A stretch of 64,000 nucleotides of DNA from Candidatus Saccharimonadota bacterium (GTDB lineage: Bacteria > Patescibacteriota > Saccharimonadia > Saccharimonadales > Saccharimonadaceae). The position numbers and the translations under genes were made by a program. The DNA lies in contig JAFUBT010000003.1 of the NCBI GenBank assembly GCA_017460065.1, forward strand, positions 7,134 through 71,133, in the 5' to 3' direction. Positions 5,455 to 52,869 of the stretch are shown piece by piece. How positions within the stretch are numbered: the first letter of the stretch is position 1; the number at the start of each line of letters is the position of its first letter. Below the pieces are notes generated by a model. It had not been told where the DNA came from. It saw only the letters and a list, made by a program, of their open reading frames with translations, and searched no databases.

Positions 5455-5579
5455 TGCTGCAAAAACATAACGGAGCCTGCTGGCAAGTTCAAGATGCGGC
5501 TCGCACGTGAAAGGTATCGACGCCAAGGTAATGCTTAGGCATAAAACATAACGGAGGTTACGACCGAGTTCCAGACGAA
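5455..5579 (+). repeat. two truncated or diverged copies of the TAACGGAGCC-core palindromic element
   Basis: TAACGGAGCCTGCTGGCAAGTTCAAGATGCGGCTCGCACGTGAA at about 5468, then TAACGGAGGTTACGACCGAGTTCCAGACGAAGC at about 5548. The partner of the second copy, GCTTCGCCCC, resumes after 5695. Confidence 0.6.
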
Positions 5580-5695
5580 GCTCAAGCATACTATACTACG
5601 AAACGTAACGGAGCCTGCTGGCGAGTTCAAGATGCGACTCGCCCGTGAAGACGGGCCGAGACGACATCGTGTTTCGTAGCATAGTATGCTTGAGC
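5580..5695 (+). repeat. complete palindromic element, copy A (25-nt arms plus 66-nt conserved core)
   Basis: Arms gctcaagcatactatactacgaaac (5580-5604) and gtttcgtagcatagtatgcttgagc (5671-5695). Core GTAACGGAGCCTGCTGGCGAGTTCAAGATGCGACTCGCCCGTGAAGACGGGCCGAGACGACATCGT. Confidence 0.75.
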
Positions 5696-5705
5696 GCTTC
5701 GCCCC

Positions 5706-5734
5706 TTGTCATCCCGCCCCACTTCTGCTATAAT
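5706..5734 (+). promoter_or_regulatory. infC operon promoter (extended -10)
   Basis: TTGTCA (5706-5711), 17-nt spacer, TGc TATAAT (5726-5734). Confidence 0.55.
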
Positions 5735-5771
5735 TACCCCATAAACAAGTCTAATTTTAAGGAGCACAGCC

Positions 5772-6287
5772 ATCAGTAACCACAATTCGCGCACTCGCAT
5801 CAACGGAGAAATTCGTCATCCCGAGGTCCGCGTAATCAGTGCTGACGGTGCGCAACTTGGCATTATGTCTAGCCGCGACGCCCAACTCATGGCTCGCGAC
5901 GCCGGTTTAGACCTGGTCGAGATTTCGCCAAACGCCAATCCGCCAGTAGTCAAAATCATCGACTGGGGTAAATACCAGTACCAAAAGATGAAGGAGCTCA
6001 GCCGCGCCAAGAAAAATGCCAAAAGCAGCGAGCTCAAACAGATTAGGCTTGGTTTGAAAATTGGGGAAAATGACCTCAATATTAAATGCCGCAAAATCCT
6101 CGAACTCCTCGAAGGTGGCGATCGTGTCAAAGTGATGATTATCTTCCGTGGCCGCGAAATGGCCCACAAAGAAATCGGCACCGAACTCATGAACAAAATC
6201 GTCGAAAAGCTCGGCGACCAAGTCATCGTCGACGGCAAATCGCAGATGAGCGGCCGCAATCTTATCTTTACGGTTCGCCATAAATAG
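5772..6287 (+). CDS. infC: translation initiation factor IF-3, probable non-AUG (ATC) start
   Basis: The frame is open from the stop at 5742 and encodes ISNHNSRTRINGEIRHPEVRVISADGAQLGIM upstream of the ORF-track ATG at 5865. AAGGAG (5759-5764) lies 7 nt before ATC at 5772. The rest is typical IF-3 sequence. Confidence 0.8.
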   Translation: MSNHNSRTRINGEIRHPEVRVISADGAQLGIMSSRDAQLMARDAGLDLVEISPNANPPVVKIIDWGKYQYQKMKELSRAKKNAKSSELKQIRLGLKIGENDLNIKCRKILELLEGGDRVKVMIIFRGREMAHKEIGTELMNKIVEKLGDQVIVDGKSQMSGRNLIFTVRHK

Positions 6288-6367
6288 ATAAGCATTGCCC
6301 CAACGCCCACCGGTTCCCTACACCCCAAAGCGTTGCAATTATTAACTAAAGTAGGAAAGGTATCGAA

Positions 6368-6562
6368 ATGCCAAAACTCAAGACCCACAAGGGCACTGCG
6401 AAGCGCGTCAAAATTACCACCAATGGTAAAATCGTCCGCGAACGTGCCTTCGGCAACCACATTCTTGCCAAAAAGTCCAAAGCCCGCAAGCGCAACATCA
6501 AAACTCCTGCGGTCGTTAAGGGCAAAATTGCCAAAAACATTAAAACTGCACTAGGAGCCTAA
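6368..6562 (+). CDS. rpmI: 50S ribosomal protein L35
   Basis: [22 protein letters not shown]..., 64 aa, between infC and rplT. Confidence 0.95.
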
Positions 6563-6564
6563 TC

Positions 6565-6978
6565 ATGAGAGTCAAACGAGGAGTTGCCGCCCGCGCAAAA
6601 CACAAGAAAATTCTAAAAGCCGCCAAAGGCATGCAGCACTATCGCACCCGCAGCTATCGCATGGCCAAGCAAGGCGTCATCAAGTCCCTCAGCTACGCCT
6701 ACCGCGATCGCCGCAACCGCAAACGCGACCTGCGCAGCCTCTGGATCACCCGCATCAACAATGCGGCCCATGAAAACGGCTTAAACTACAGCACTTTCAT
6801 CAACGGTCTCAAGGCCAAAGACATCGAACTTGACCGCAAAGTTCTCGCCGAACTCGCTGTCAACGACCCCAAGGCCTTTGCCGCCATCTGTGAAAGCGTC
6901 AAAGCAAAACCAGCTACTAAGGCCGACACCAAGAGCGCCAAAGCTCCGGCCAAGGCCAAAGCCGCTGCAAAAGCCTAA
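6565..6978 (+). CDS. rplT: 50S ribosomal protein L20 with Lys/Ala-rich C-terminal extension
   Basis: [22 protein letters not shown]... with tail [23 protein letters not shown]. Confidence 0.95.
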
Positions 6979-7011
6979 GCTTAAGCTGTTTCAGTAATTT
7001 TTACAACAAAA

Positions 7012-7036
7012 AGCACCGCTCCACGCGGTGTTTTTT
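7012..7036 (+). terminator. intrinsic terminator after rplT
   Basis: Stem caccgc/gcggtg (7014-7030) followed by TTTTTT. Confidence 0.7.
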
Positions 7037-7063
7037 GTACCCCTCTCGTGCAGCGAAAGAGAT

Positions 7064-7342
7064 GCAGAAAAGGCTACATAGCTTATTCTTAAAACGTAAC
7101 GGAGCCTGCTGGTATAGTAAAAAGCTAGTATTAACTTTTTTGGAATATAACGGAGCCAAAAAACAGAGACGCAGAAAAGGCTACATAGCTTATTTTTTAA
7201 ACGTAACGGAGCCTGCTGGTATAGTAAAAAGCTAGTATTAACTTTTTTGGAATATAACGGAGCTCACGAGCGAGTTCCAGCAGGCGTTCGCCCGTAACGA
7301 CGGGCCGAACGAACTGCGTATTCCAAAAAAATTAATACTAGC
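7064..7342 (+). repeat. nested and tandem array of the TAACGGAGCC element (107-bp period, 2 units) ending in a complete copy C
   Basis: Unit gcagaaaaggctacatagcttatt..aaacgTAACGGAGCCTGCTGGtatagtaaaaagctagtattaacttttttggaataTAACGGAGC occurs at 7064 and again at 7171. The final copy has arms ctagtattaacttttttggaata and tattccaaaaaaattaatactag around core TAACGGAGCTCACGAGCGAGTTCCAGCAGGCGTTCGCCCGTAACGACGGGCCGAACGAACTGCG. Confidence 0.75.
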
Positions 7343-7347
7343 CTAAC

Positions 7348-7688
7348 AAGCTCATCAATAAGCCGGGTTCTGTACCCCAAAGGGGCAGTAGCCATCTATC
7401 TAGCCTCGCGATTGCTCACGAGATCTAGCGGTGAGCGACCATCCGCGGATCACGGTATCTAGGTCTCCTTGCAGCCAATAGAGTTTACCTCACGCCAATG
7501 TCACCATCAGCGCCTGTGAGCTCTTACCCCACTCTTTTCACCCTTACCACGACCGAAATCATGGCGGTTTAGTTTCTGTGGCACTTTTCCTACCCTTACG
7601 GGCGGTTGCCGTTAGCAACTATCGTATCCTGTGCTGCCCGGACTTTCCTCTCGCTATTTTTCAAGCCAGCGGCTACTTCGATGAGCTT
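7348..7688 (-). ncRNA. rnpB: RNase P RNA, bacterial type A
   Basis: Minus strand contains GAGGAAAGTCCGGGC, ACAGAAA, GGGTGAAA, GTAAGAGC and ACAGAACCCGGCTTA. P1 is formed by AAGCTCATC (5') and GATGAGCTT (3'). Confidence 0.9.
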
Positions 7689-7744
7689 GACAACATCATA
7701 ACACAAAACCCCTCAATTAGCAATCCGCCTATGCTAAGTGCTAA

Positions 7745-8644
7745 CTACCACTCTGCCCGCTGCGTGTGCAGGTCGATTATCTTATTAACTTCAGCATCCG
7801 CCTCGGTATTCTTACTACGCGGTACATGCGTAAAGCTGAACGAATCAAGATTTTCCAGCAACTTTAGCACATCGCTATACACCTGCATCAGATCTTTATT
7901 CTTCACTTGGTACACCCCGTTCAGCTGATTCACCATCATCAGACTGTCGCTCATAAAGTTCACCTTCTTGTAGCCCAGTTCGATTGCCTGCTCTAACCCC
8001 TCTTTCAGGCCATAATACTCTGCTAACCGGCTATTCGACATCCCCAGAAATTCTCCGCCCCGCTTAATTTCCTTGCCGTCCGCATCTAAAATATAATACC
8101 CAACCCCGCTCGGCCCAGGGTTGCCCCGGCTACCGCCATCGGTGTAAACCGTAATCACTCCACTCGCAGTCAGATTGCCGCCTTCACTCTCCTGGCCAAA
8201 ATTCGCCATCCGCTCAGCCAGCTTCGGTCGGTTTGCCTTATTTTGGATAATCTGCAATACCATCCCCGACGCTTCATCGAGTCGCAATTCGTTCACCCGT
8301 TCGACCTCTTGCCAACTATAGGCAACGTGACGCTCATTCGTCAGCTTTATCTCGGCCTGCGCATCAAAATTCACTCGAAACACCACGAACAAATTCGCCA
8401 AAGCCGAAGCCGATTCGAGATTCGTAAAGGTCACGACATCTTCCAGCATTAACTCTTGCGCTTGCACCGCTAGATTCTCGTAAATAATCCGCGCCATCGC
8501 TTCATCCGGCTGTTCGCCGAATACAATCTTCCCTGTCGGCAACTCATAATTATCCATACCAACCACGCGCCCCGCCGCGCGTTTCAAGAGCAACACTTTA
8601 CCCTCGTGCTCACAGATTGCCGTCACCCGAATCCGCTGTTTCAT
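7745..8644 (-). CDS. two-domain protein: N-terminal Nudix-like domain fused to C-terminal RNase HI
   Basis: C-terminal half VITVYTDGGSRGNPGPSGVGYYI...AEYYGLKEGL...HVPRSKNTEADAEVN is RNase H-like. N-terminal GKIVFGEQPDEAMARIIYENLAV resembles a degenerate Nudix box. Confidence 0.7.
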   Translation of the reverse strand: MKQRIRVTAICEHEGKVLLLKRAAGRVVGMDNYELPTGKIVFGEQPDEAMARIIYENLAVQAQELMLEDVVTFTNLESASALANLFVVFRVNFDAQAEIKLTNERHVAYSWQEVERVNELRLDEASGMVLQIIQNKANRPKLAERMANFGQESEGGNLTASGVITVYTDGGSRGNPGPSGVGYYILDADGKEIKRGGEFLGMSNSRLAEYYGLKEGLEQAIELGYKKVNFMSDSLMMVNQLNGVYQVKNKDLMQVYSDVLKLLENLDSFSFTHVPRSKNTEADAEVNKIIDLHTQRAEW

Positions 8645-8680
8645 TACCTTGAATTATACCATAAGCGTAAACCGCAAAAA

Positions 8681-8810
8681 ATCCTAAGTGAGTGCGTTTT
8701 CCCGTGATAAGAACACGGTGGGTAAACTCGCTTGCTCTAGAACCACGGTCCTAAAACCTTGAATTCCCATAAACATGATTATTCAGGAAAATCATGTGCT
8801 CACTTAGGAT
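8681..8810. repeat. 12-bp perfect inverted repeat enclosing ~106 nt in an intergenic region
   Basis: atcctaagtgag (8681-8692) and ctcacttaggat (8799-8810). Internal hairpins ccgtg/cacgg and catgatt/aatcatg. Confidence 0.5.
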
Positions 8811-8845
8811 ACTTCTATTATACCATAATTGCCAAAGCGCCAAAT

Positions 8846-9475
8846 CTAGGCGACGCCGACCAATGCATAGAAAAAATGCAATATCCCCTCTGTCGCTGCG
8901 CTCATATAATTACTGAATAACCCTCCACCTAGCAGTAATAAGGCATAAATCACAATCACCCCATAGCGCTCCATCGTCCGCATCACCCCACGAATCGACT
9001 CCGGCGCCAAGGCGTACAATATCCTCGAGCCATCTAGCGGTGGAATCGGCAATATATTAAATAGACAGAACCCCAGATTCACCATAATCGCCGTCAGCAA
9101 GAAAGTCCCCACCATCCCTGTTGCCTGCGTCCAATACAACAACAAAAATGCCCCTAAGGCCAGCACGAAATTCGTCAGCGGCCCCATCAGCGCCACCAAG
9201 GCAAAGCCCCATTCGCCACCCCGCACCTTTCGGGTGTCAATCGGTACCGGTTTTGCCCCACCAAAGACTGGCATTCCCGCCAACGCAAGCATCAGCGGCA
9301 CCAGTACCGTCATAACTGGATCAATGTGTCGTAGAGGATTTAGTGACAGCCGCCCATCGTTCTTTGCGGTATCGTCCCCCAACTTATAGGCCGTAAAACC
9401 ATGCGCTAATTCATGCAGTACCATCGAAAATACCACAATCACGAACACGAAAATAAGGTAATAGATTTTATCCAT
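8846..9475 (-). CDS. site-2 protease family (M50) membrane metalloprotease
   Basis: HELAHG motif in the first TM helix, multiple TM segments, PLDGSRIL motif. Confidence 0.8.
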   Translation of the reverse strand: MDKIYYLIFVFVIVVFSMVLHELAHGFTAYKLGDDTAKNDGRLSLNPLRHIDPVMTVLVPLMLALAGMPVFGGAKPVPIDTRKVRGGEWGFALVALMGPLTNFVLALGAFLLLYWTQATGMVGTFLLTAIMVNLGFCLFNILPIPPLDGSRILYALAPESIRGVMRTMERYGVIVIYALLLLGGGLFSNYMSAATEGILHFFYALVGVA

Positions 9476-9505
9476 TACCTTATTATAGCACCTACTAAAA
9501 GTGTC

Positions 9506-9697
9506 TTATTTAATCAAACCTTTTTTACGGAGCGTGCGCAAAGCAGAGGTTGAAACATTCAACTTAACCTTACGGCCATCAACCACTACGGTACGCTTTT
9601 GGATGTTTGGCTTAAAAACCTTGCGAGTCTTGTGCTGCGAAAAACTCACATTGTGGCCATACATCTTGCCTTTACCGGTAATTTCACATACTGCCAT
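9506..9697 (-). CDS. rpmB: 50S ribosomal protein L28
   Basis: MAVCEITGKGKMYGHNVSFSQHKTRKVFKPNIQK... Confidence 0.9.
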   Translation of the reverse strand: MAVCEITGKGKMYGHNVSFSQHKTRKVFKPNIQKRTVVVDGRKVKLNVSTSALRTLRKKGLIK

Positions 9698-9780
9698 ATC
9701 TATTATTCTCTATTATTTTCTTAAAACTGCGTTCTATTATATCTTATAATCCCTGTTTTTGCAAGGCTCAGCCGCAGCGT

Positions 9781-10230
9781 CTAGTCCAGCTTCCAGACTT
9801 CGAGCGCCGGCGGCAAAGCCGAGGCGTTCTTAATGCGCAGCTTCTTCTCTAGCTTCACGCCTGCCTTTATCTCTGCAAAGTCCATGTTGCCCATTGGGAT
9901 AACAATCTTCGGCTCGACGATCGACACAATTTTCGCATTCGCCGTTCCCAAGATATCAATCGGCCCCAATTCGTCCAGCTCTTCCGTCTTGACGCCGTCG
10001 CCCACCAAACCAATCTTGATACCGTCGATATCAATCCGATACATCACGCCCCCCTCTTTGGTGTCCTTAGCGCTAATCACAATATCGCCAATTTCATACT
10101 CACCTGCACCGACCAAATCCCCTACCGGTAAGGCTGCATCCACCCTTGATTGTGCGACATTAATATTTACGAGCTTTTCCTTAGCCCGAATCACCATTTC
10201 ATCAGAATTTTTCAGCTCTATTTCAAACAT
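9781..10230 (-). CDS. hypothetical protein
   Basis: 149-aa ORF with a strong upstream GGAGAGGAG RBS. No domain recognised. Confidence 0.5.
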   Translation of the reverse strand: MFEIELKNSDEMVIRAKEKLVNINVAQSRVDAALPVGDLVGAGEYEIGDIVISAKDTKEGGVMYRIDIDGIKIGLVGDGVKTEELDELGPIDILGTANAKIVSIVEPKIVIPMGNMDFAEIKAGVKLEKKLRIKNASALPPALEVWKLD

Positions 10231-10250
10231 TCTCTACTCCTCTCCACCAA

Positions 10251-10853: not shown

Positions 10854-10891
10854 CCTACTTCAATTTTAACACAAAACAGAATAAATAATTT

Positions 10892-26802: not shown

Positions 26803-28587
26803 TTATTGTTCGTTTTTGACAGCTCGGTAGCTACCTGCGGCCACCAGCACGCCTAGGGCCGATAGCAACATGCCGTAGCTTTCCGTCGTCAATACGTCAG
26901 CTGTCTTTGGGTTTGAGCCGTCCGCGACAACTTCTTCCGCAGCAGATTCCTCTGTCGGAACAGCCTCGTCATCGCCACCCTTACCCGGCTCTTCCTCTTC
27001 CACTACATAACTCACGAAAGGCTGTTCGAAATCCTCTGCCTCACGTTCGTTGCCTTCCGAGTCAACCGGGTACAAAGTCGCAACTTCATTCGTTGGCACG
27101 CTATATTCGCCCGCCTCCGTAGCCTTATTAACTAACTGCAGTATATAGCTCAGCGACACCCGCTCAAAGTTAGAAATATTCCGCAAAATATTCCAAGTAA
27201 AGCTTTCACCATCGGCGTCATAGTCAATCGTGAATTCGACCACGCCATCCGCGTTCGCAAACTCAATCGTGCTGCCATTGACGGTCTTTGTTAGAGCGGC
27301 CTTCTCTGCGCCGTCCACACCCGTCACGACCAAATTGAAACTGCCCAAATCATACAAATCAAAGTCTTCGCCAATCACGCCGACGACCTTGCTCCCCCTA
27401 CCTAGCAAGTACAAGATATCTTTGCCAACTTTCGCAAAATCCATCGTCTCGCCGTTGTTCATCGCATCAATCAAAGCTACCGTCAAAGGGCTATTTGAAC
27501 CAGATTTGACTGCATAGACATGGTAATTTTCGGCCATCTGGCGCCACTGCTTGAGCGCTTCAAAGATAGCCCGATCCATTGACAAAGCGTGCTCTTTCTC
27601 GCCGTATGGCACATAAACAAAGTCTTCGCTTGGTGCACCGTAGTAGATGTTTGTACCATTAAAAGGGTAGGCATAGCTGTCACCATCGGCCGCAACCCAC
27701 TCTTCTACCTGCGCCATGTAGGCATCCCAGTCGCCACCGGGAATACCGTAGCTACCCTCTTTTACGCCACGTGCAACCGACCAAGACGACGACTCGCCCC
27801 AGTACTGCGCACTGTTTTTATATAACTGGTAATAAATATCCATTACCGTGCCGTCTTCCGACGTCCACAGACGCGTCAAGCCGTCCGTCACTAAAATAAC
27901 GTGTTTGCGCGTATTCGTCACCTCGGCGTCAGCCTGCAACAGCTCTTCAGCCCTCAAGAGGCCGTCCTGGATATTTGTACCACCATACGGCGGATTCTTA
28001 TAGCCTTCTCGAATCAAAGCCTTTATCGCGTCAACATTATCGGCCGACAATTCTACTAGCTCTTGCGTAACTTTTGCATTGCCCTTGAACACAACGATGG
28101 CAATCTTAATTTTCGTACCGTCATCATTCTGCACCTGCGCATACAAATCATCAACCAGTTGTACGGCATCATTAATAGTTGCGCTCTTACAGCTCGAATT
28201 ATCAACCACGAACACAATATCGCTGGCCAAGTTTTCTTCGCTCGACGGCAAAGACAAGGTCACCTCAGTGCGATCATTCTCGTCCAATTCAGTCGCCTCC
28301 TTTGATTTCGAGACGTCCCATTCTTGCGCCGCCGGATCATCGGTGTCCGGCCCCTCGCCTTCATTGCTTGGCTCACTTGTGGTCTGGCCGTCAGCCGTAC
28401 CCCCATCATCCGCGCCGCTAGTCGTTTCGGCATCACCGTTCGTGGCTGGCTGCTCTTCGGCCGTCGGCGTGCTTTCGCTAGCCTCCCCACCGTCTAACGC
28501 GTAGACACTATGCGTCGACATGCCAAAACAGAAGCCAAGCGCCAAAAAACCGGCTAGCACCCACGGAAAAGCCCATGTCTTTTTCAT
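26803..28587 (-). CDS. von Willebrand factor A domain surface adhesin with NPKTA sorting signal
   Basis: Signal peptide MKKTWAFPWVLAGFLALG, acidic linker, VWA core DIVFVVDNSS...ILVTDG. C-terminus NPKTAD (26899-26913) plus a TM helix and RAVKNEQ. Confidence 0.7.
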   Translation of the reverse strand: MKKTWAFPWVLAGFLALGFCFGMSTHSVYALDGGEASESTPTAEEQPATNGDAETTSGADDGGTADGQTTSEPSNEGEGPDTDDPAAQEWDVSKSKEATELDENDRTEVTLSLPSSEENLASDIVFVVDNSSCKSATINDAVQLVDDLYAQVQNDDGTKIKIAIVVFKGNAKVTQELVELSADNVDAIKALIREGYKNPPYGGTNIQDGLLRAEELLQADAEVTNTRKHVILVTDGLTRLWTSEDGTVMDIYYQLYKNSAQYWGESSSWSVARGVKEGSYGIPGGDWDAYMAQVEEWVAADGDSYAYPFNGTNIYYGAPSEDFVYVPYGEKEHALSMDRAIFEALKQWRQMAENYHVYAVKSGSNSPLTVALIDAMNNGETMDFAKVGKDILYLLGRGSKVVGVIGEDFDLYDLGSFNLVVTGVDGAEKAALTKTVNGSTIEFANADGVVEFTIDYDADGESFTWNILRNISNFERVSLSYILQLVNKATEAGEYSVPTNEVATLYPVDSEGNEREAEDFEQPFVSYVVEEEEPGKGGDDEAVPTEESAAEEVVADGSNPKTADVLTTESYGMLLSALGVLVAAGSYRAVKNEQ

Positions 28588-28779
28588 ACTTTCTCCCATT
28601 CCTTATGTTTTCCGACCGCCACAGCCGCATGGCAGCCTTCTACCAGAAACATATACCGCCTACCACTAATTTGCAATCATAAGCATAATATTTTATAATA
28701 TACTTTTTACGCTTAAAATTATTGCTCACCCTCCCCTGCGCCATTACAGTATTATTGTAAAAATCACAACACAAGAAAA

Positions 28780-39282: not shown

Positions 39283-40209
39283 CTACTTTATCTCTGTGTC
39301 ACTATGAAACCGCTCGTGCACTTCACGCAAATGCGGATCTGTCACGTGCGTATAAATCTGCGTCGTTGAAATATTCGAATGCCCCAACATCGACTGTACC
39401 GAGCGCAAATCCGCCCCATTCATCAACAAATCCGTCGCAAAGGAGTGCCGCAAGGTGTGTGGCGTTACGTGCTTAGTAATCCCTGCCAAACGCACGTATT
39501 TATCCACGATGCGCTGTACACTACGCGACGTCAAACGCCGATCATCTTTCTTGTTCTCGGCCTCCGGACGATTCCGCGAATTATTCAAAAACAAGGCCGG
39601 CAACTTATCACGCCGCTCAGCCAAATAGTCTCGCAGGGCATCTGCCGCCTGCTCCGAAATAAACACCGGGCGGTCCTTCTGCCCCTTACCACGCACCATA
39701 AACTCCCGCCGCTCCAGATTAACATGCTGCCGGTCAAGGTTAATCAGCTCCGAAACACGCAGCCCCGACGAAAACAGCAACTCTAAGATCGCTCGGTCTC
39801 GCAAGCCCGCTTCATTATCCAACGGCACCTCAGATAACATCCGGTCAATCTCGTCCACATGCAAGAAAGTCACCTGCGGCCGATGCGTCTTCGGCAAATC
39901 TATCAACACCGGGTCCATCGACTTAATCCCCCGCTTCAACAGATACTTCAAAAAGCCCCGCAAGGCCACCAGATGGTAATTCTGCGTCGCCACCGACAAG
40001 CCTTTCTTGCGTTCCGTCACATAGCGATTCAGCCACAAGCGATATTGCCGCAGCCACTCTGGCGTAATCTCCGCTGGCTTCATTTCCTCGCCGCCAAACT
40101 CCGTCACGCGCGACAAATACAACTCATAGTTACGTGTCGTATAACGGCTGCGCCCGCTCTCAATCTCCAGCGATTGTAGGTATTCAATAATCAAATCACT
40201 GACAAACAT
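39283..40209 (-). CDS. xerC: tyrosine recombinase XerC/XerD family
   Basis: HTLRHSFATDLLMNGADLRSVQSMLGHSNISTTQIYTHV. Confidence 0.85.
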   Translation of the reverse strand: MFVSDLIIEYLQSLEIESGRSRYTTRNYELYLSRVTEFGGEEMKPAEITPEWLRQYRLWLNRYVTERKKGLSVATQNYHLVALRGFLKYLLKRGIKSMDPVLIDLPKTHRPQVTFLHVDEIDRMLSEVPLDNEAGLRDRAILELLFSSGLRVSELINLDRQHVNLERREFMVRGKGQKDRPVFISEQAADALRDYLAERRDKLPALFLNNSRNRPEAENKKDDRRLTSRSVQRIVDKYVRLAGITKHVTPHTLRHSFATDLLMNGADLRSVQSMLGHSNISTTQIYTHVTDPHLREVHERFHSDTEIK

Positions 40210-45253: not shown

Positions 45254-46888
45254 CTATTTTTCACGAATTAGCTCATTCATCTCGGCCATTAGCTGATTCA
45301 ACAGTTCATCGTCATGGTTTTCTTCTGCCTCCCGAATCCGCACCGACAGCTCTTGCCGCCGCTGCGCCAGCCGCTCTTTCGTCACTGTTCGACACAGCAC
45401 TTCAGCCTCGCGCTGCTGCTCCTCGGCCGACCACGACGCGTATTGCTCTTCAAAAATCAGCTCCAATTCTGCCCGCTCCAAATCGCCCAGCACTAAGCCA
45501 TCTTCGACCTTCGCCTTCCCGCACGTTACCAAAGCCGCCAAATTCTTCTCTGCTCGACTTATCTCAGATGTTGTATTTTTCACAACAGCAGCCCCCTTCT
45601 TCAGTCTTTTTACTTCCTGCCGCACCTTTTTCGCTCGAAAGGCTTCTAACGAAATCCCCAAGCGCTTACTCACCATGCGTTCGTACTTCTCGCGCAGCAC
45701 TGTATCGCTTGCATCAATTCCGTCAATCAAGCGCTTTGCTTCCTTGGCGTACTCCTGGAAGCCCTTCTCGGTTTTCAAATTGTACTTCGCCTCGTACTGC
45801 TCCAAAATCCACTCCAAAGCTGGTCGGTAGCTCTGCACCGCCTCTTGCCACAACTTCGCATCTTTCTGAATCAATTCATCCGCATCTTTACAGCCATGGT
45901 AATCATCGATCACCGACAGATAAATCCCGAACTTCGACGCCATCGCAATCGCTCGCTCGGCCGCGCGCACCCCAGCTTCATCGCCGTCATAGGCCAGCCG
46001 AATATCATTCGTCATCCTACTAAAGGCCTTCAGGTGGTTCTCTGTCATCGCCGTACCGGCCGTCGCCACCGCCTCTCGCACACCAGCCTGATGCGACGAA
46101 ATCACGTCCATATTCCCCTCGACCACCACCACAAACTCCGACCGCCGAATTGCGTCTCGCGCCTGGCTCAAGCCAAAAATATGTCGCCCCTTGTTATACA
46201 ACATTGTCTCTGGCGTGTTTAAGTACTTCGGCGTGTCCTTTGCATTTGCATCCACAATCCTTCCCGTAAAGCCAATCACTCGCCCACCCTGGTCCATCAA
46301 CGGAATCATCATCCGCCCCTTAAACAAATCTCCGCCAAAGCGATTTACTAAGCCGGCATCCTCCAACTCTTGCGCCGAAAAACCCCGCTTTTTCAGAAAA
46401 TTTGTCAATGCATTTCCCGACATTGGCGCATAGCCAATCCGAAAATTCTCCACCGTCCCCCTGTTCAGATGTCGCTCGTAAAACACATATTTGCAGACCG
46501 CCTTATTCCGTACTAAACAAGTCTGAAAATATTTTGTAGCCAATTCCAAAGCCTCGTATAGTCGCCGTTTGCGCTCTGCTACCGCCTTGTCGTCACCGCT
46601 ATAGCGCTTCAACTCTACCCCCGCCTGCTGCGCTAACTTCTCCAAAGCCTCCCGAAAAGTAATCCCCTCCATTTCCATCACAAAACTAAAAATATCGCCG
46701 CCTTTATTGCTCGAGAAATCATGCCAAATCCCCTTTTCTGGCGACACCATAAAGCTCGGTGTCCGGTCCGTCCCCCACGGCGAATGCCCCTTCAAATTAC
46801 GCCCCGCCCGTTTCAGCTCAATATACTGCCCAATCACATCTTCGACCGCTAAGCGCTCCCGAATCTCCTCTTTAGCAGCATCATTCAT
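45254..46888 (-). CDS. dnaG: DNA primase
   Basis: Zinc-finger region (CPFHGEKTPSF-like: GHSPWGTDRTPSFMV) and TOPRIM VVVEGNMDVIS. Confidence 0.85.
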   Translation of the reverse strand: MNDAAKEEIRERLAVEDVIGQYIELKRAGRNLKGHSPWGTDRTPSFMVSPEKGIWHDFSSNKGGDIFSFVMEMEGITFREALEKLAQQAGVELKRYSGDDKAVAERKRRLYEALELATKYFQTCLVRNKAVCKYVFYERHLNRGTVENFRIGYAPMSGNALTNFLKKRGFSAQELEDAGLVNRFGGDLFKGRMMIPLMDQGGRVIGFTGRIVDANAKDTPKYLNTPETMLYNKGRHIFGLSQARDAIRRSEFVVVVEGNMDVISSHQAGVREAVATAGTAMTENHLKAFSRMTNDIRLAYDGDEAGVRAAERAIAMASKFGIYLSVIDDYHGCKDADELIQKDAKLWQEAVQSYRPALEWILEQYEAKYNLKTEKGFQEYAKEAKRLIDGIDASDTVLREKYERMVSKRLGISLEAFRAKKVRQEVKRLKKGAAVVKNTTSEISRAEKNLAALVTCGKAKVEDGLVLGDLERAELELIFEEQYASWSAEEQQREAEVLCRTVTKERLAQRRQELSVRIREAEENHDDELLNQLMAEMNELIREK

Positions 46889-46969: not shown

Positions 46970-47075
46970 TAGCTACATAGACTTCTTGAGCCGCATCGAA
47001 ACGGCCCGTCGTTACGGGCGTTTCGTGCTTGGACTCGGCCGTAGCCTGCGTAAGCTCAAGAAGTCTACGTAGCTA
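46970..47075 (-). repeat. palindromic element, copy D (reverse orientation, diverged core)
   Basis: Arms tagctacatagacttcttgagc and gctcaagaagtctacgtagcta. The reverse-complemented core TTACGCAGGCTACGGCCGAGTCCAAGCACGAAACGCCCGTAACGACGGGCCGTTTCGATGCG aligns with copy A. Confidence 0.65.
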
Positions 47076-47166
47076 TATCTGCCAAATACCCCAATGCGCA
47101 ACAGCAACCGCGAATTACGGTGATGATAAGTACAGTATTAACGAGAACGTCGCAGGCTGCAGCGGC

Positions 47167-47274
47167 GATAGATATGTATACTACTAAGAACGTACGCAGT
47201 TACGACGAGTATAGTTGACGACACCCCGCGACGGCGGGCTGGCGTCAACGGTTCTTAGTAGCATACATATCTAC
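47167..47274 (+). repeat. palindromic element, copy E (diverged core), inserted after a truncated CGCAGGCTGCAGCGG copy
   Basis: Arms gatagatatgtatactactaagaac and gttcttagtagcatacatatctac. Core GTACGCAGTTACGACGAGTATAGTTGACGACACCCCGCGACGGCGGGCTGGCGTCAACG. Confidence 0.6.
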
Positions 47275-47315
47275 CGCATAGCATAATGACATACCGCTTG
47301 TGCTATAATCACCTT

Positions 47316-47930
47316 ATGGACAACAAGGCTTACCTCGATCAAATCGCCGTTAAAGGCAAAAAAACCACTTCAAAACCTTTATTTACCCCGGCAATCATCA
47401 AGTTATTTGCCGCCGGCATAGTCGCCTTGCTCCTCTTTTTCATCGTCATCTTCATGCTCAATTCCAATAATGCCAAAATCACCCAAAAATTCGAGGCGCT
47501 CTATCAACGCAGCGCCAGCCTCTCTGCGGAAGACGGCCCACTCAACAGCTACAACGACAAACTCAAATCTTCCGACTTGCGTCAATACAACAGCACGCTA
47601 CAAGTCACCATGGCTAATTTCGTCAACACCTACGGCGGCATGTCCAGCACAGCCGGCTTCAATCCAGGCTCCATCTCATCCACCGTCGCCGGCGAAGACA
47701 GCACCAATACCAGCGAAATCGAGAACGACCTCAATGCCGGCTATCTCAACGGCTTACTCGACCACACCTACGCCTCCACAGCCTATTATCAGGTTTCCGT
47801 GCTGATTACCATGTGCCAAGAAGCCCTCTCTGCCTCAACTAACGAACAGTTGTCCGACGTCATCAATCGCTACAGCCTCGACCTCACCGAACTACAAAAA
47901 CTCTACAAAGCCCAGCTCGAGAGCAACTAA
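47316..47930 (+). CDS. hypothetical membrane-anchored protein (leaderless start)
   Basis: TGc TATAAT at 47301-47309 with ATG at 47316. TM helix LFAAGIVALLLFFIVIFML. Confidence 0.5.
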   Translation: MDNKAYLDQIAVKGKKTTSKPLFTPAIIKLFAAGIVALLLFFIVIFMLNSNNAKITQKFEALYQRSASLSAEDGPLNSYNDKLKSSDLRQYNSTLQVTMANFVNTYGGMSSTAGFNPGSISSTVAGEDSTNTSEIENDLNAGYLNGLLDHTYASTAYYQVSVLITMCQEALSASTNEQLSDVINRYSLDLTELQKLYKAQLESN

Positions 47931-48256: not shown

Positions 48257-48768
48257 TTCAGTTCCTCTATGCTCCCGCGGATATCGTCCAGCGCACGATG
48301 TTGTTCTGGTTTCGTAAAATGTTTATGCAGCGCACCTTCAAAGAAAATCTTCCACGCGCTCACGTCTAACATCCGGTAGTGCAGCCGCTTATCCAGCTTC
48401 GGCCACTCGCGCTCAATAAATTTCCGGTCTTGATGAATCGAATTACCCGCCAAATATACTTCGTCGCCAAAATGCTGCTCCACAAACTGCAGCAATTCTT
48501 TCTCGACCTGCGCCGCTGCTAGACCACTGGCGTTCTGTGCCACAAGCGCTTCATAAGACGCTCGGTTTTTCTCCCAAAACTCTCCTACCATCCGTTTTTT
48601 CATCAACTCCTCGTCGACTTTTACTACAGCGGTATAAGTTCCCAGCTCTTCCAAGCCCCAATTCGTCGCAATGGCAGCAACCTCCAAAATCCGGTCTTTC
48701 TCTGGAGAAAGCCCCGTCATTTCTAGGTCCACCCACAACAGTACGCCAGTTTTCTGCTTCGTCATCAA
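48232..48768 (-). CDS. orn: oligoribonuclease
   Basis: LLWVDLEMTGL, AGNSIHQDRKFI, HRALDDIRGSIEELKWY (DEDDh). Confidence 0.85.
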   Translation of the reverse strand: MMTKQKTGVLLWVDLEMTGLSPEKDRILEVAAIATNWGLEELGTYTAVVKVDEELMKKRMVGEFWEKNRASYEALVAQNASGLAAAQVEKELLQFVEQHFGDEVYLAGNSIHQDRKFIEREWPKLDKRLHYRMLDVSAWKIFFEGALHKHFTKPEQHRALDDIRGSIEELKWYLKSIS

Positions 48769-48769
48769 A

Positions 48770-49165
48770 CTATTTCTTCAAATCTAGCTTCAAAGCTTTC
48801 ACGACCAGATAAATCACCAAAGCCAAGACCAAGAAATTAATCAAGTCATTAATGAAAGTACCGTAGCTCAAAACGGCAACTTCACCCGATGGCGTTGTGC
48901 CAAGCTCGGCCGTTAAACCTTTCAAGCCTTCCGCTGAACCAAGCAAAAAGCCTAGTGGTGGCATAATTAGGTTGTTAATCAGGGAGTTCACTAAGCCACC
49001 CGCAGCAGTACCCAACACCAAACCTACGGCCAAGCCGACTACGTTTTGCTCCTTAATAAAGCTCATGAAACCGCTTGCGCCGCCCTTAAATTTATTCATA
49101 CCTGCAGCAGCGAGTTCCTTTGATTTTGCCTTTGCGTCTTTTGATGACATCTTAGCTTGCGCCAT
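48770..49165 (-). CDS. mscL: large-conductance mechanosensitive channel
   Basis: FIKEQNVVGLAVGLVLGTA, INFLVLALVIYLVV. Confidence 0.85.
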   Translation of the reverse strand: MAQAKMSSKDAKAKSKELAAAGMNKFKGGASGFMSFIKEQNVVGLAVGLVLGTAAGGLVNSLINNLIMPPLGFLLGSAEGLKGLTAELGTTPSGEVAVLSYGTFINDLINFLVLALVIYLVVKALKLDLKK

Positions 49166-49212
49166 AAAAACACCTTCCTTATGTTATTTTGCTTTTACTA
49201 TACCATATTAGG

Positions 49213-50898
49213 CTACATTTTAGCGGGAACTTCAATCCCCAACAGCTCCAGAGCGCGCGTCAACACGCTGTCGGCTTTCTCGATTGTCCACAAACGTGCC
49301 GACTTCGTCGCTTCATCCGCCGAAGATATTGGCGCTTTTTCGTAATAACGATTCAACTCTTGCGCCAGCTCAAAACAAAAACCCGCCAACTTGTGCATTT
49401 CAAACTCCGCACAAACTCCCCGCACCAAAGTCGGGAATTTCAGCAGTAACTGCAGAATTGGCTTTTCGGCCGCAAAATCATAACCACTAAAATCAACTCG
49501 CGCAAAAGCCGCATTTTTTTCCAAAATCCGTCGCATCCGCACGTCTGCATACTGGCAAAATGGCCCCGATTGCCCCGTTAATGCAAAAATCTTGTCTGGA
49601 TCATACAAAATCCCCGTCTTGCGATCCGCCACAAAATCCGAATATTTTATCGCCCCCACTGCAATTTTTGCAATATCCGCGTCATCTAACTCCGCGCCAA
49701 AATTCTGCCGTACCCGCGCTTCGGCATCGTCTAGCAATTCTTCCATCAGTACCACGCCCTTGCGCGATGACATTTTTTCGCGCTTCCCCTCGGGCGTAAT
49801 TTGGTCAATCGTGCCAAACCACAGATGGTAGTTGTCAATTTTCAACCCAATCTTCTTTGCCATCGCAAATAGCTGCTCAAAGTAGAACTTTTGCTCTGCT
49901 CCCACCGCATAAATAATCCGCTCCGGCCGTAATTCTTCCGCCCGATACAACAAGCAGCCCAAATCCGTCGTCGCATACAGCGCCGCACCATTGCTCTTCA
50001 ACATTAGCATCGGTACATCTATGCCAAATTCGTCCAGCCGGCAAATCACCGAACCGTCATCGTTCTCTTCAAACAAGCCTTCCTTCAAATATTGCTTCAC
50101 GGCTGCCTTGCCCCGCTCCACGAAGCAACTCTCACCCATCTCCAAATCGGTCGCAATCCGCAAACGCCCCATCACTTCGTGCGTATGCTGCAAGGATATT
50201 TCTTTAAAACGCGTCGACAATGCTACCGCCTCAGGGTCTTTTGCCTCCAATTTCAGCAGCCAACTCTGTACCTCATCCGCCAAATTATGTTTACCGGCCT
50301 TAGCTTCAGCTTTCAAATCCGCCTTCATTTGAATGTAAATTTGCCCTAAATCATACACCGTCACTTCATCGATGTTTTTGCCCGAGCGGCGAAAACCCAC
50401 CGCCCAAACCCCAAACGGCGTCCCCACATCACCCAGATGGTTATCCGTCGTCACTTGCCAGCCGTTTGCTTCCAGCACCATTTTGGCCGCCCACCCCTGC
50501 GTGCCAGGCCGCAAATGCCCCACCGAATAGGGCTTCGCAATATTTGTACTCGGAAATTCCACTAACGCCGTCTTGCCAGTTCCACTATCGTTATCGCCAT
50601 AATGCTCTGACCACTGCGCAGCTAAAGCCGCCTGCAAATTACGGCCACTTATCTCCACATTAATAAAACCCGGCCCGGCCACCGAAAAAACATACTCCGA
50701 CGCTTTGCTCAGCTCGGCGATTATTTCCTCGGCAATTTGTCGCGGGCTCTTCCCCACCTGTCGCGCCAAACGCATCGCGACATTACAAGCATAATCACCC
50801 GCAATCTCACTTGGCACATCAGTTAATTCAATCTTAATATCATTGACGCCAAACAACCGCGCCACTACTTCGCTAATTTGCTCCCGAATCTGCTCCAT
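49213..50898 (-). CDS. argS: arginine--tRNA ligase
   Basis: EFPSTNIAKPYSVGHLR (HIGH-like), MSSRKG (KMSK), C-terminal DALR domain. Start chosen at MEQIREQ. Confidence 0.9.
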   Translation of the reverse strand: MEQIREQISEVVARLFGVNDIKIELTDVPSEIAGDYACNVAMRLARQVGKSPRQIAEEIIAELSKASEYVFSVAGPGFINVEISGRNLQAALAAQWSEHYGDNDSGTGKTALVEFPSTNIAKPYSVGHLRPGTQGWAAKMVLEANGWQVTTDNHLGDVGTPFGVWAVGFRRSGKNIDEVTVYDLGQIYIQMKADLKAEAKAGKHNLADEVQSWLLKLEAKDPEAVALSTRFKEISLQHTHEVMGRLRIATDLEMGESCFVERGKAAVKQYLKEGLFEENDDGSVICRLDEFGIDVPMLMLKSNGAALYATTDLGCLLYRAEELRPERIIYAVGAEQKFYFEQLFAMAKKIGLKIDNYHLWFGTIDQITPEGKREKMSSRKGVVLMEELLDDAEARVRQNFGAELDDADIAKIAVGAIKYSDFVADRKTGILYDPDKIFALTGQSGPFCQYADVRMRRILEKNAAFARVDFSGYDFAAEKPILQLLLKFPTLVRGVCAEFEMHKLAGFCFELAQELNRYYEKAPISSADEATKSARLWTIEKADSVLTRALELLGIEVPAKM

Positions 50899-50920
50899 GA
50901 ATATCAATATTATAACATCT

Positions 50921-52516
50921 TTACGCACTCTTAGCAGCTCTTATCAGCCCCTCAAACAGCGGATGCGCCCGATACGGCCGGCTCTTGAACTCTGGATGCG
51001 CCTGCGTCGCCACAAAATATTTGCAATCTGGCGCTTCGACAAATTCCACCAATTCGCCGTTTGGCGAAGTCCCCGAAACTTTCAGACCGCCCCGTTCAAT
51101 TTCCGCCACAAACTGCTGATTCACCTCATAGCGATGCCGATGCCGCTCAACCACTTTCTTCTCGCCATACAAACTCTCAACCAGGCTACCTGCCTTCAAT
51201 TTCGCCGGATAATCGCCCAGCCGCATTGTTCCACCGGTGCTCTCTTTACCCTTTTGTCCGGGCATAATATACACCACTCGCGCTTTCGCCGGAGCGTCAA
51301 ATTCTTCAGAGTTGGCCTGCTTCACGCCGCCGCGTCGCGCTGCTGCAATTACCGCCGTCTGCAGGCCCAGACACAGTCCCAAATATGGCTTATCGTGCTC
51401 CAAACAATACTTGGCCGCGGCAATTTTTCCTTCTACGCCACGTGCGCCAAAACCCCCCGGCACTACGATACCGTCCACCTTCGCAAAATCTGCATCAGTA
51501 GCTTTCTCGGCGTCCACCCAAATCGTCCGCAACTTTACTCCCGCCTTCCAGGCCGCCGCCTTCAGTGCCTCCGTCACCGATAGATAAGTATCAGTATTAT
51601 CAATATACTTCGCCACTAGGCCAATCTTGACGACCTCCTTTGGCTCCGCCTCAATATTCTTTACCAGTTTTTCCCACTGGCTCATATCCGGATCACCGTG
51701 GTCAATAAAACGCTCCAGCGGTGCCAACACACCACCTTTCACTGCATTCAGGGGCACTTCATAGACAGACTTCGCATCCGGCATCAGCACCACCGCATCC
51801 GCCTCGACTCCACAAAATGTCGCCAGTTTCTGCGCCACATGCGGCGCCTTAATTACTTTATCTACGTCCATTCGCGCCACTACCATATCTGGAATAATGC
51901 CAAATTCACGCAAATCTCGCAGTGAATTTTGCGCTGGCTTCGTCTTAAACTCCTCCGAAGTCGATAGCCACGGCACATAGCACACATGCACAAACAAGCA
52001 ATTCTCGCGTCCTACTTTCGTAGGAAATTCTCGAATCGCCTCCACGAAATGCGATCCCTCCAAATCACCAATCGTCCCACCAATTTCCACAATATGTACG
52101 TCGGACTTGAAATGCTTCGAGTTGTCAATAAAAGTCTTTTGCACCAAGCCAGTCACGTGCGGCACTAACTGCACTGTTTTACCACCAAACTTCCCCGCTC
52201 GCTCATCATCAATCAAACATTTGTATAATTTTCCGGAAGTCCAAATCGAATCTCCCGTCATTTCCTCATCCAAAAAACGCTCATAGTGCCCCAAGTCCAA
52301 ATCTGTCTCTGCGCCATCATGCGTCACAAAGCATTCGCCGTGCTCCCGCGGATTCAGTAGCCCTGCATCGACATTAAAATAAGGGTCGCACTTCTGCATC
52401 GACACCTTCAGTCCTTTCGCCTTCAAAATTGCCCCGATGCTTGCCGCCATAATACCCTTGCCAACGCCAGAGATTACTCCCCCTGTTACAAAAATGTATT
52501 TCGTGTTTGTTTTCAT
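50921..52516 (-). CDS. pyrG: CTP synthase
   Basis: KYIFVTGGVISGVGKG, GLCLGLQ, C-terminal glutaminase domain. GAAGGAGG RBS before ATG at 52516. Confidence 0.9.
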   Translation of the reverse strand: MKTNTKYIFVTGGVISGVGKGIMAASIGAILKAKGLKVSMQKCDPYFNVDAGLLNPREHGECFVTHDGAETDLDLGHYERFLDEEMTGDSIWTSGKLYKCLIDDERAGKFGGKTVQLVPHVTGLVQKTFIDNSKHFKSDVHIVEIGGTIGDLEGSHFVEAIREFPTKVGRENCLFVHVCYVPWLSTSEEFKTKPAQNSLRDLREFGIIPDMVVARMDVDKVIKAPHVAQKLATFCGVEADAVVLMPDAKSVYEVPLNAVKGGVLAPLERFIDHGDPDMSQWEKLVKNIEAEPKEVVKIGLVAKYIDNTDTYLSVTEALKAAAWKAGVKLRTIWVDAEKATDADFAKVDGIVVPGGFGARGVEGKIAAAKYCLEHDKPYLGLCLGLQTAVIAAARRGGVKQANSEEFDAPAKARVVYIMPGQKGKESTGGTMRLGDYPAKLKAGSLVESLYGEKKVVERHRHRYEVNQQFVAEIERGGLKVSGTSPNGELVEFVEAPDCKYFVATQAHPEFKSRPYRAHPLFEGLIRAAKSA

Positions 52517-52757
52517 GGGCACCTCCTTCAAATTACCCACCTATATTTATACTCTTAGCATAAGCAAAAACATCTCTCGCCGCAAGCAGTGACATTTCCA
52601 ACTTTTCTGTCCTAACACTTGGCACAAGACGCTATATCTGGTGTTTTATGACTAATTTTCTACACTAAGACTTTTGTCCCAATTATCTTTATTATCTACT
52701 GTCAGAAACACGGTGGCACGAATCAGACGACCGTACTTTACTGCATCAGTAATAATT

Positions 52758-52869
52758 GACATACAGTTTAGTATGGAAACGTAACGGAACCTGCTGGCGA
52801 GTTCAAGATGCGACTCGCCCGTGAAGACGGGCCGAGGCGACATCGTGTTTCCGTACTAAGCTGTATGTC
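52758..52869 (+). repeat. complete palindromic element, copy F (core nearly identical to copy A, arms unrelated)
   Basis: Arms gacatacagtttagtatggaaac and gtttccgtactaagctgtatgtc. Core GTAACGGAACCTGCTGGCGAGTTCAAGATGCGACTCGCCCGTGAAGACGGGCCGAGGCGACATCGT has 2 differences in 66 nt from copy A. Confidence 0.75.

Follow-up and report, generated by a model that had tools for sequence, protein, structure and literature searches.

Palindromic elements with a conserved folded core and locus-specific stems in Saccharibacteria occur between genes and, in frame, inside housekeeping genes

What kind of element conserves its center and varies its ends? The question is raised by a 64,000-nt stretch of a Candidatus Saccharimonadota genome (assembly GCA_017460065.1, contig JAFUBT010000003.1, positions 7,134 to 71,133; hereafter, the window), in which a first, sequence-only reading had noticed several copies of an element with a conserved, structured core held between self-complementary arms that differ from copy to copy, the reverse of the arrangement known from MITEs (miniature transposable elements with inverted repeats) and REP sequences. 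These elements are about 105-150 bp long and non-coding, with a conserved core of 60-70 nt, and the reversed arrangement extends to at least 119 copies. Our results show that the family is real, widespread, structured, strand-specific, and tolerated in frame in essential genes, and also that its members are present or absent at orthologous sites, flip, carry identical cores within unrelated stems and are biased in orientation relative to GC skew. We infer that they are selfish or neutral DNA of the Rickettsia palindromic element (RPE) kind, and we favor, as the probable but by no means assured explanation, an RPE-like selfish element whose mechanism would involve single-stranded DNA.

To count the copies in the window we used a covariance model (R1) that was built from 14 copies, all from other genomes, and was run on the window with its filters off. 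The model recovered exactly five full copies, labeled A, C, D, E and F, with the E-values listed here, which are rough, and the same region also carries several partial copies.

Copy A: 5580-5695, plus strand; arms 5580-5604 and 5671-5695, core 5605-5670; between the comM-like gene and the infC promoter; model match 5594-5680 (+), E = 7e-11.
Copy C: 7231-7342, plus strand; arms 7231-7254 and 7319-7342; next to the RNase P RNA gene, whose 3' end adjoins the 3' arm; model match 7243-7329 (+), E = 5e-12.
Copy D: 46970-47075, minus strand, on which the core reads in sense; upstream of dnaG (minus, 45254-46888); model match 46981-47065 (-), E = 8.9e-16.
Copy E: 47165-47277, plus strand; divergent core with tip CCCCGC-GACG-GCGGG; 89 nt from D, with which it forms a divergent pair; model match 47180-47261 (+), E = 4.6e-7.
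Copy F: 52756-52871, plus strand; arms 52756-52780 and 52847-52871; between the CTP synthase gene (minus) and a leaderless-type promoter; model match 52770-52856 (+), E = 1.8e-9.
5' fragment: 5467-5511, plus strand; two thirds of an A-type core, from its 5' side (ATAACGGAGCC...CACGTGAA), ending within the P3 loop.
Isolated 5' domain: 5548-5579, plus strand; the P2 hairpin and its tandem G·A (AACGGAGGTTACGACCGAGTT), immediately next to copy A.
Tandem duplication: 7058-7263, plus strand; a 107-bp unit in 1.9 copies that holds 5' fragments of two elements (Tandem Repeats Finder, 96% matches).

The earlier count of at least six copies is therefore replaced by five complete ones plus 5' fragments. 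The two truncated copies that had been placed at 5455-5579 are indeed two 5' fragments, now refined to 5467-5511 and 5548-5579, the latter also matched by the model at 5550-5570 (model positions 14-34, E = 1.1); what had been taken as one copy at 7064-7342 is a complete copy only over 7231-7342, the rest being the 107-bp tandem duplication of 5' fragments. The possible fragment at about 63791 is a chance 10-mer (at 63793), as is a second 10-mer at 57814 inside a coding open reading frame (ORF), and neither has covariance-model support. Both signature strings of the earlier description, a common TAACGGAGCC core start and a CCCGT-N4-ACGGG hairpin, need qualification as well: the hairpin is present in copies A, C, D and F, and copy E lacks both strings yet is a divergent family member. 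With up to one mismatch, TAACGGAGCC occurs 10 times in the window vs. 2.9 expected, a number that none of 100 shuffles reaches. The five best long inverted repeats of the window with a 59-66 nt spacer are the five elements themselves (22-27 nt, 92-96% complementary), and the full copies have fold z-scores of -8.8 to -10.7 relative to shuffled sequence.

Some of these loci vary among assemblies of the same species. The 5467-5511 fragment is missing from a strain contig (L123) by an 81-nt indel with the direct repeat AAAACATAACGGAG at its bounds. At 7058-7342, the same contig carries a single intact copy of A type, flanked by arms of its own, a second assembly (L124) has a different chimera and a third (L122) has an N gap, which points to recombination among cores, to assembly breakage at the repeats, or to both.

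The core folds, on one of its strands only, into a three-way junction composed of a closing stem (P1) and two hairpins (P2 and P3). P1 is 14-52 bp long (median, 28) and has a sequence of its own at each locus. The short P2 hairpin is made up of a stem, a tandem G·A/A·G, 2-3 bp and a tetraloop, either as CGGAG-GYUACGRC-CGAG or as CGCGAC-CAACG-GGGAGCG. The long P3 hairpin ends in the near-invariant tip CCCGU-RAMG-ACGGG and has one A and one C bulged out. RNAalifold applied to a plain MAFFT alignment returned the P3 tip only, because the flanks were misaligned, and was replaced by a hand-written structure on a gap-free subset followed by realignment with the covariance model. In the 119 model-aligned copies, standard pairs fill 86.3% of cells (vs. 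63.2% when shuffled), both sides have changed in 32 of the 34 pairs, and the covariation score is 0.538, compared to 0.155 for shuffled data (0 of 500 shuffles reach the observed value) and 0.04-0.07 with partners slid. The covariation that had been seen next to the CCCGT hairpin is likewise real and general, with 17-55 double changes in each of the four pairs below the P3 tip in a structure-blind MAFFT alignment of 93 copies. The tandem pairs of P2 are conserved as G·A in 70 and as A·G in 80 of the 119 copies, and many members have a second tandem G·A in inner P1. A kink-turn RNA motif has tandem sheared G·A pairs beside a 3-nt bulge, between a C and an NC helix; in the elements the tandem G·A is kept in P2 and common in inner P1, and the bulge has 0-1 nt. 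Four copies (L006, L085, L108 and L115; L numbers denote loci or contigs of relatives) also contain, in or beside P2, an extra small GC-rich hairpin module (e.g., GTTCGCCCCTTGGGACGCG) as a nested insertion.

Relatives were found by searching species-representative genomes for the exact 19-nt P3-tip pattern, which listed at least 120 loci, and the family counts given here (97 pattern copies and 119 model copies) come from among the matches listed; the data are contigs of metagenome-assembled genomes (MAGs), and loci of one genome, or orthologous loci, are not independent. About 95 of the at least 120 listed loci belong to MAGs of Candidatus Saccharibacteria or Nanosyncoccus from the gut of ruminants, mice and humans, and the remaining ones, outside Saccharibacteria, are chance matches in GC-rich coding DNA. 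A covariance-model scan of related genomes, which the sequence-only reading had proposed, yields at least 119 copies in the Saccharibacteria loci, from 99 sources, with the strong covariation described above. Copies are unevenly spaced, with four in 8 kb in L042 vs. five in the 64-kb window, and some stand as tight divergent pairs (minus then plus, 33-91 nt apart), as at 46970-47277 in the window, L045 1756-1987, L107 700-909 and L113 5665-5872. The L107 pair shares its central arm (A'-core(rc)-A-core-A'), which is the layout expected of palindrome growth by template switching.

Comparison with known families gave no match. Against Rfam 15, which includes the small self-cleaving ribozymes, the elements were unmatched at gathering thresholds, and there was also no match at E<=10 over 5400-7400 or at E<=1 over a type-1 genic copy. 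We found no family member in viral contigs (IMG/VR), where the matches were one chance P3-tip match in a GC-rich ORF and one isolated 17-mer, no match by BLAST to plasmids and phages, and no description of such elements for Saccharibacteria or other bacteria of the candidate phyla radiation (CPR) in full-text searches of the literature. The family is large, apparently specific to Saccharibacteria and apparently undescribed.

The description of the family as intergenic holds for the window, where all five copies lie between genes, but not for its relatives, where two thirds of the copies are in frame in housekeeping genes. Specifically, 65 of the 97 parsed Saccharibacteria copies are within open frames of at least 200 amino acids (aa), far from either end, 29 of them sense and 36 antisense to the host gene, and all are in frame and stop-free. 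Hosts confirmed by Pfam are LeuRS, IleRS, ValRS, ArgRS, AlaRS, LepA, BipA and Der, together with UvrD, UvrB, RecX, TsaD, TrmD, TatD, MnmA and an IscS-like enzyme, and one 8-kb locus has four genic copies. In these proteins the element amounts to an insertion of 35-50 residues (e.g., the AlaRS junction peptide is predicted as ...FLGTGSRRPVVTGGAPLATSVVTSGAPQK...). The P3 tip is translated as SPVTTGR or ARNDGP in sense copies and as RPVVTG, GPSLRA or ARRHGR in antisense ones; that is, five of the six frames are used, the sixth being closed by a stop in the loop, and conservation must therefore be at the level of nucleotides or structure. Intergenic copies have 1.6 open frames vs. 2.9 for genic copies, with the window's five likewise closed in most frames. 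They have no consistent orientation to their neighbors, and 15 of the 32 are flanked by convergent genes, in many cases with stop codons a few bases away. Selection on the host protein thus admits copies that are in frame and free of stops.

Alternatively, the genic copies could be intervening sequences that are removed from the mRNA, in an intron-like manner or through RNase III excision and ligation, with P1 juxtaposing the exon ends. The long P1 does set its flanks side by side, and a perfect duplex of 20-40 bp in an essential mRNA would otherwise be expected to attract RNase III. However, excision would not require that every genic copy be in frame and stop-free, nor does it agree with the fewer open frames of intergenic copies, and we encountered no gene split by an out-of-frame copy among the examined loci; both orientations occur, too, even though the structure is strand-specific. 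Hence, we regard removal from the mRNA as very improbable.

Which strand carries the structure was decided by the mismatches in the stems. The two strands are not told apart by folding energy, whether computed for RNA or for DNA, but only by the types of mismatch. With the arms compared by a strand-symmetric score (Watson-Crick pairs only), the mismatches of P1 are G·T or T·G in 61 cases and A·C or C·A in 9 (p = 1.3e-10), and the G·T to A·C ratio is 12:2 in sense, 16:3 in antisense and 33:4 in intergenic copies. Since the excess is found in all three contexts, the strand that is kept paired is the core-sense strand (the folding strand) and not the mRNA strand. This asymmetry disfavors one of the three models of the sequence-only reading, the DNA-level cruciform, taken here as a symmetric double-stranded palindrome that would serve as a protein-binding site. 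The inverted repeats are long and near-perfect, as such a site would have them, and both strands fold with similar DNA energies; nonetheless, the G·A pairs and asymmetric bulges are conserved on one strand only and the core itself is not palindromic, so we give the cruciform hardly any credence.

The orientation of the folding strand follows base composition. With the elements masked, the DNA around 81 of the 97 pattern copies has negative GC skew on the folding strand, and this strand is the C-rich one in 99 of the 119 model copies (p = 9e-14), in 77 vs. 10 copies where |skew| > 0.08, and by 50 to 8 when decided by genome majority. The plus strand of the window has a GC skew of -0.22 to -0.28 in every 8-kb bin, so that copy D is the only one in the window with its folding strand on the G-rich strand, and the whole window appears to be within one replichore. 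Plus-strand genes (-0.264) and minus-strand genes (-0.259) have the same skew, and the asymmetry therefore does not originate from transcription. Coding bases are on the G-rich strand in 62.5% of cases across family loci (median per locus, 71%) and in 72% in the window, where that is the minus strand. As the G-rich strand is usually the leading strand, the folding strand would have the sequence of the nascent lagging strand, that is, of the leading-strand template. Further, the composition of the C-rich strand, rich in C and A, should by itself yield A·C rather than G·T mismatches, and the G·T excess in spite of it suggests selection or correction acting on the folding-strand hairpin.

These results bear directly on a second model of the earlier reading, a structured RNA family. 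Under this hypothesis, the elements would be transcribed, functional RNAs (a protein-binding small RNA or an mRNA element with kink-turn-like tandem G·A) in which P1 is a freely varying closing helix. A structure on a single strand is strongly supported by the covariation, the tandem G·A, the tetraloops and the one-strand G·T excess, and four of the five window copies (A, D, E and F) are upstream of, and co-oriented with, the neighboring gene or promoter. The part of the model that concerns a transcribed product fares less well. More than half of the genic copies (36 of 65) are antisense to their host and still show the same strand-specific pairing, intergenic copies have no consistent orientation and are between convergent genes in 15 of 32 cases, and orientation tracks replication-type skew instead of transcription. 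The window copies are located upstream of predicted -10 boxes and would thus not be transcribed by the downstream promoter, and no Rfam family matches. The rule that an element precedes a co-oriented promoter, as it does for copies A, D, E and F, fails in other loci. We therefore consider a functional transcript unlikely.

It is also conceivable that the elements benefit the host as polar chromosomal DNA signals that are read in single-stranded form (for priming, replication restart or the binding of fork proteins) and are kept by selection at many loci. Purifying selection on individual stems, seen as G·T far exceeding A·C against composition, the strong orientation bias relative to skew, the near-invariant P3 tip and retention in very small genomes would all be in line with such a signal. 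Close relatives, however, differ in presence or absence at the same sites without apparent consequence, and density is very uneven (L042 vs. the window, as above). In addition, fragments, nested copies and chimeras are typical of proliferating junk, and insertion into essential proteins is costly with no obvious gain. On balance, a host-beneficial signal has, in our view, only a small chance of being the right explanation, and selfish DNA remains the reading that we prefer.

Cores and stems behave differently: cores are copied or homogenized from locus to locus, and a stem passes down with its locus and changes through compensating substitutions. Copies A and F of the window have cores that are identical at 64 of 66 positions and arms that are largely unrelated, as had been reported, sharing beyond the core only GAAAC/GTTTC of the inner arm. 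In genome RGIG5840, the cores in TrmD, LepA and ValRS are identical over 67 of 67 positions within stems that are unrelated beyond 3-8 bp. When TrmD of RGIG5840 is compared to TrmD of a 93%-identical relative, the values are:

TrmD gene, RGIG5840 vs. relative: 81-84% nt identity.
TrmD element arms, same comparison: 86-90% nt identity.
TrmD element core, same comparison: 63/67 identical.

That is, paralogous cores within the genome (67/67) are closer to each other than orthologous ones (63/67), and we attribute this pattern to homogenization on account of the specific identical paralogues together with the TrmD orthologue/paralogue contrast. Core copying or homogenization is accordingly established for particular cases and not as a general rate. 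Most pairs of near-identical cores share merely 2-8 bp of stem; two same-genome pairs have more of the stem carried along with the core, 24 bp in UvrB of L062 and LepA of L078 and about 17 bp in L023 and L038, with the outer stem locus-specific in both. No further copies of the individual arms exist in the window, which means that the arms are not spacer-like copies of other window sequence.

The two pairs with 17-24 bp of stem plus core in common, and unrelated flanks, look as if a unit with inverted repeats had transposed, and they are the best case for an ordinary MITE, or an element derived from REP/RAYT or IS200/IS605, that is moved by an end-recognizing transposase encoded elsewhere. Size, hairpin shape and the bias toward one strand relative to replication also resemble the substrates of HUH transposases. 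Yet the termini are not conserved across the family, given the 2-8 bp shared by most near-identical cores; no target-site duplication is evident at filled/empty junctions; and no transposase was found in the annotated parts of the 64-kb window, as noted before for the window, or in the annotated neighboring contigs (~45 kb); the window and these contigs encode housekeeping functions only, including a XerC/D-like recombinase. The active strand of IS608-type elements lies on the lagging-strand template, and the folding strand here, on the C-rich strand, appears to be opposite to that rule. Movement by such a transposase is accordingly quite unlikely.

Comparison of orthologous sites shows how the elements come, go and turn. 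Presence or absence among relatives, which had been suggested as a check, was found as filled and empty orthologous sites in AlaRS, TrmD, ValRS, TsaD and UvrD; the empty alleles are those of AlaRS, TrmD, ValRS and a second TsaD site and, for UvrD, the window itself. The third model of the sequence-only reading, insertion into the loops of hairpins, is thereby only partly upheld: cores are exchanged or homogenized between unrelated stems, but long hairpins without a core do not form a family in the window, and the empty alleles lack most or all of the stem. An ORF of the window (26803-28599) that was tried as a reference for an empty LepA site is unrelated (21% identity), and two apparent "solo-stem" alleles were withdrawn, one being a weak 5-bp palindrome (AlaRS of L130, z = -1.2 to -2.0) and the other a direct, not inverted, repeat (TrmD of P0163).

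At the AlaRS site, a 93%-identical relative reads CAGTCTGAAAAAACTCAG|TTATCAGGG and the filled allele is longer by a net 96 nt. The arm on the gene-upstream side overlaps native codons (QSE..), and 9-15 nt of the other arm, absent from the empty allele, are the inverted complement of native codons; the arms in ValRS are the mirror image of this situation, and for TsaD and TrmD the empty alleles have neither arm. We saw no direct repeats, i.e., no target-site duplication, at the filled/empty junctions of AlaRS, ValRS and TsaD, the three sites examined. The region of TrmD homologues between WNQEMAR and HYIILCPHYEG is a hot spot for insertions in general (alignment A10; 215-293 aa) that also takes inserts unrelated to the family, such as …RSGPLGQVLV… and the P0163 direct-repeat insert.

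Elements at the same orthologous site occur in either orientation and with different stems in LepA, UvrD, IleRS, LeuRS, RecX, TsaD, Der, TrmD, TatD and AlaRS, and either orientation is also seen at one site of a gene in L043 and L051 (Gat-like by eye only). AlaRS of L046 and L129 is the clearest such case: the arms are orthologous and the cores are 68/68 identical but in opposite orientation, within a gene that has clearly diverged (86% aa identity, with many nt differences locally). The RecX copies of L033 and L103 show the same behavior of arms and core. It follows that the core flips in place between its own inverted repeats.

Taken together, these observations are best accommodated by an RPE-like selfish element acting through single-stranded DNA. 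Copies persist only where they are harmless: between genes, or in essential proteins at permissive loops, where they are in frame and free of stops. The mechanism might be as follows. The active form would be single-stranded DNA at the replication fork, with selection keeping the folding strand paired regardless of which way the host gene runs, and with this strand lying preferentially on the C-rich strand, which we take to be lagging. Cores would spread, or be converted, as lagging-strand-like single strands, and stems would be built or extended from local sequence by templated fold-back synthesis, plus compensating substitutions, and be inherited with the locus. A host protein acting in trans likely recognizes the invariant P3 tip. 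Alternatively, the orientation bias may result from faster loss of copies whose more stable hairpin lies on the lagging-strand template. We also put forward, tentatively and as a rather long shot, that the family has a hitherto unknown mode of mobility that needs no transposase of the element's own: a structured single-stranded core would be copied between loci at the fork, would enter as a lagging-strand fragment or anneal like one, and would then build and lengthen a locus-specific stem by fold-back (template-switch) synthesis. Such copying plus fold-back growth could account for the conserved center, the unique arms, the replication-tied orientation, the concerted evolution of cores and the in-place flips.

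Several points weigh against this explanation and should be considered together. Strong purifying selection on the stems of individual copies that are not transmitted is awkward for simple selfish DNA and leaves room for a function at the level of the host. No element-encoded enzyme, excision product or transposition intermediate was seen. Core identity within genomes (median 0.765) does not significantly exceed that at the same site between genomes (0.723; p = 0.21). One-flank inverted duplication as the sole origin of the arms fits AlaRS and ValRS and does not fit TsaD or TrmD. The step from skew to replication strand is indirect, being based on the general rule and the gene-strand bias on MAG fragments. 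Ascertainment by the exact P3 tip among the matches listed biases both the conservation of the tip and the taxonomic range, the ORF calling was crude (longest non-overlapping ORFs), and part of the chimeric locus at 7058-7342, where L122 has an N gap, may be an artefact of assembly.

Among known systems, the RPEs of Rickettsia come closest. They are small (105-146 bp) hairpin repeats of a reduced genome without an enzyme of their own, which lie in intergenic DNA, in or near the RNase P and tmRNA genes, and as in-frame fusions within conserved protein-coding genes, and their families are defined by conserved sequence that includes terminal inverted repeats of about 12 bp (PMC2229807). The Saccharibacteria elements share with them the size, the long stem-loop, the occurrence both intergenically and as in-frame fusions in conserved genes, the lack of an element-encoded enzyme and the proximity to RNase P and tmRNA genes; in contrast, their termini are locus-specific and only the center is conserved, their core is read in five frames and they belong to a different phylum. 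From this difference in architecture, relative to the published descriptions of RPEs, we judge the family not to be homologous to RPE-1 to RPE-8 of Rickettsiales. As to strand-specific structure, skew-linked orientation, in-place flips and within-genome homogenization of cores, we know of no report for RPEs. By analogy, then, the family would be palindromic selfish DNA that colonizes coding sequence, with the RPEs as its closest counterpart.

Other families are similar in some aspects and differ in those that matter most here. REP/BIME and REPIN sequences (associated with RAYT, a Y1 HUH transposase) and the IS200/IS605 elements with their PATE derivatives are short, strand-specific hairpins that are thought to act as single-stranded DNA with replication, and they have many dispersed non-autonomous copies, often just past stop codons. 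However, in REP/REPIN sequences it is the hairpin arms and a 5' GTAG-type motif that are conserved and the loop that varies. They are essentially intergenic where the present family is largely genic, and are accompanied by RAYT or TnpA; no Y1 (HUH) gene was found in the window or in the ~45 kb of annotated neighboring contigs. The Correia/NEMIS, ERIC, RUP and YPAL MITEs are alike in their 100-200 bp and in transcripts that fold into long stem-loops, but classical MITEs have conserved terminal inverted repeats, TA termini and target-site duplications, none of which were seen here. RPEs and MITEs conserve their termini, REP/REPIN sequences their arms, and the Saccharibacteria family does the reverse; hence, we assign it to none of them. 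The attC sites of integrons are set by a one-strand fold and not by sequence, with variable stems, extrahelical bases and a replication-constrained orientation. The present elements resemble attC in the one-strand fold that defines the site, in the variable stems and extrahelical bases and in the constrained orientation; attC sites differ in lying in cassette arrays beside an integrase and in having conserved R''/L''-L'/R' boxes at the stem base around a variable center, as opposed to copies that are dispersed in and between housekeeping genes, conserve the center and have no integron integrase. Lastly, flip-flop inversion of hairpin loops in plastid non-coding DNA resembles the either-way orientation between stems that stay in place, but it is a generic outcome of recombination and not an element family, and accounts for the flips only.

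No described family that we know of combines a conserved three-way-junction core, locus-specific stems under strand-specific selection and a replication-related orientation bias. If the selfish reading is correct, the smallest and most streamlined bacterial genomes, those of episymbiotic Saccharibacteria, would carry tens of selfish structured elements each, many of them inside aminoacyl-tRNA synthetases, translation GTPases and repair helicases. Selfish DNA in protein-coding genes, so far best known from Rickettsia, would then have a second case that is independent of the first. The comparative material is far richer, with hundreds of MAGs that offer filled, empty and flipped alleles, and opens to testing how palindromes originate, grow and are tolerated in essential genes, and whether spread through single-stranded DNA at the fork can do without a dedicated transposase. 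On the practical side, the insertions explain length variation in conserved marker proteins of Saccharibacteria and assembly breaks at element loci, and the covariance model can serve as a lineage marker.

A few observations on the window concern the neighborhood of the elements. The RNase P RNA gene (7343-7689, minus) has its 3' end one base from the end of the 3' arm of copy C, and a tmRNA gene is at 3509-3873 (minus). A 17-nt inverted repeat at 2965-3098 (GTTGTATTTTTTACAAC / GTTGTAAATAATACAAC; 94% complementary, 100-nt spacer) has no model match and is not a family member. The only recombinase seen in the window is the XerC/D-like tyrosine recombinase (Phage_integrase domains) at 39283-40209 (-), inside a type IV pilus gene cluster. 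Consensus TATAAT boxes at 47305-47330 and 52875-52897 stand just 6-7 nt 5' of ATG, a short spacing that suggests leaderless mRNAs, and the same arrangement is found 3' of intergenic elements in L004, L034, L045 and L109. Finally, the comM-like Mg-chelatase gene (3763-5451) is broken by one in-frame TGA (4432-4434), past which the same frame leads directly to the Walker-A sequence (…DHISGQHEAKRAI…GPPGVGKT). The gene could be a pseudogene, or the stop could be recoded or read through, and the same split into two ORFs is called in assemblies L122 and L123.

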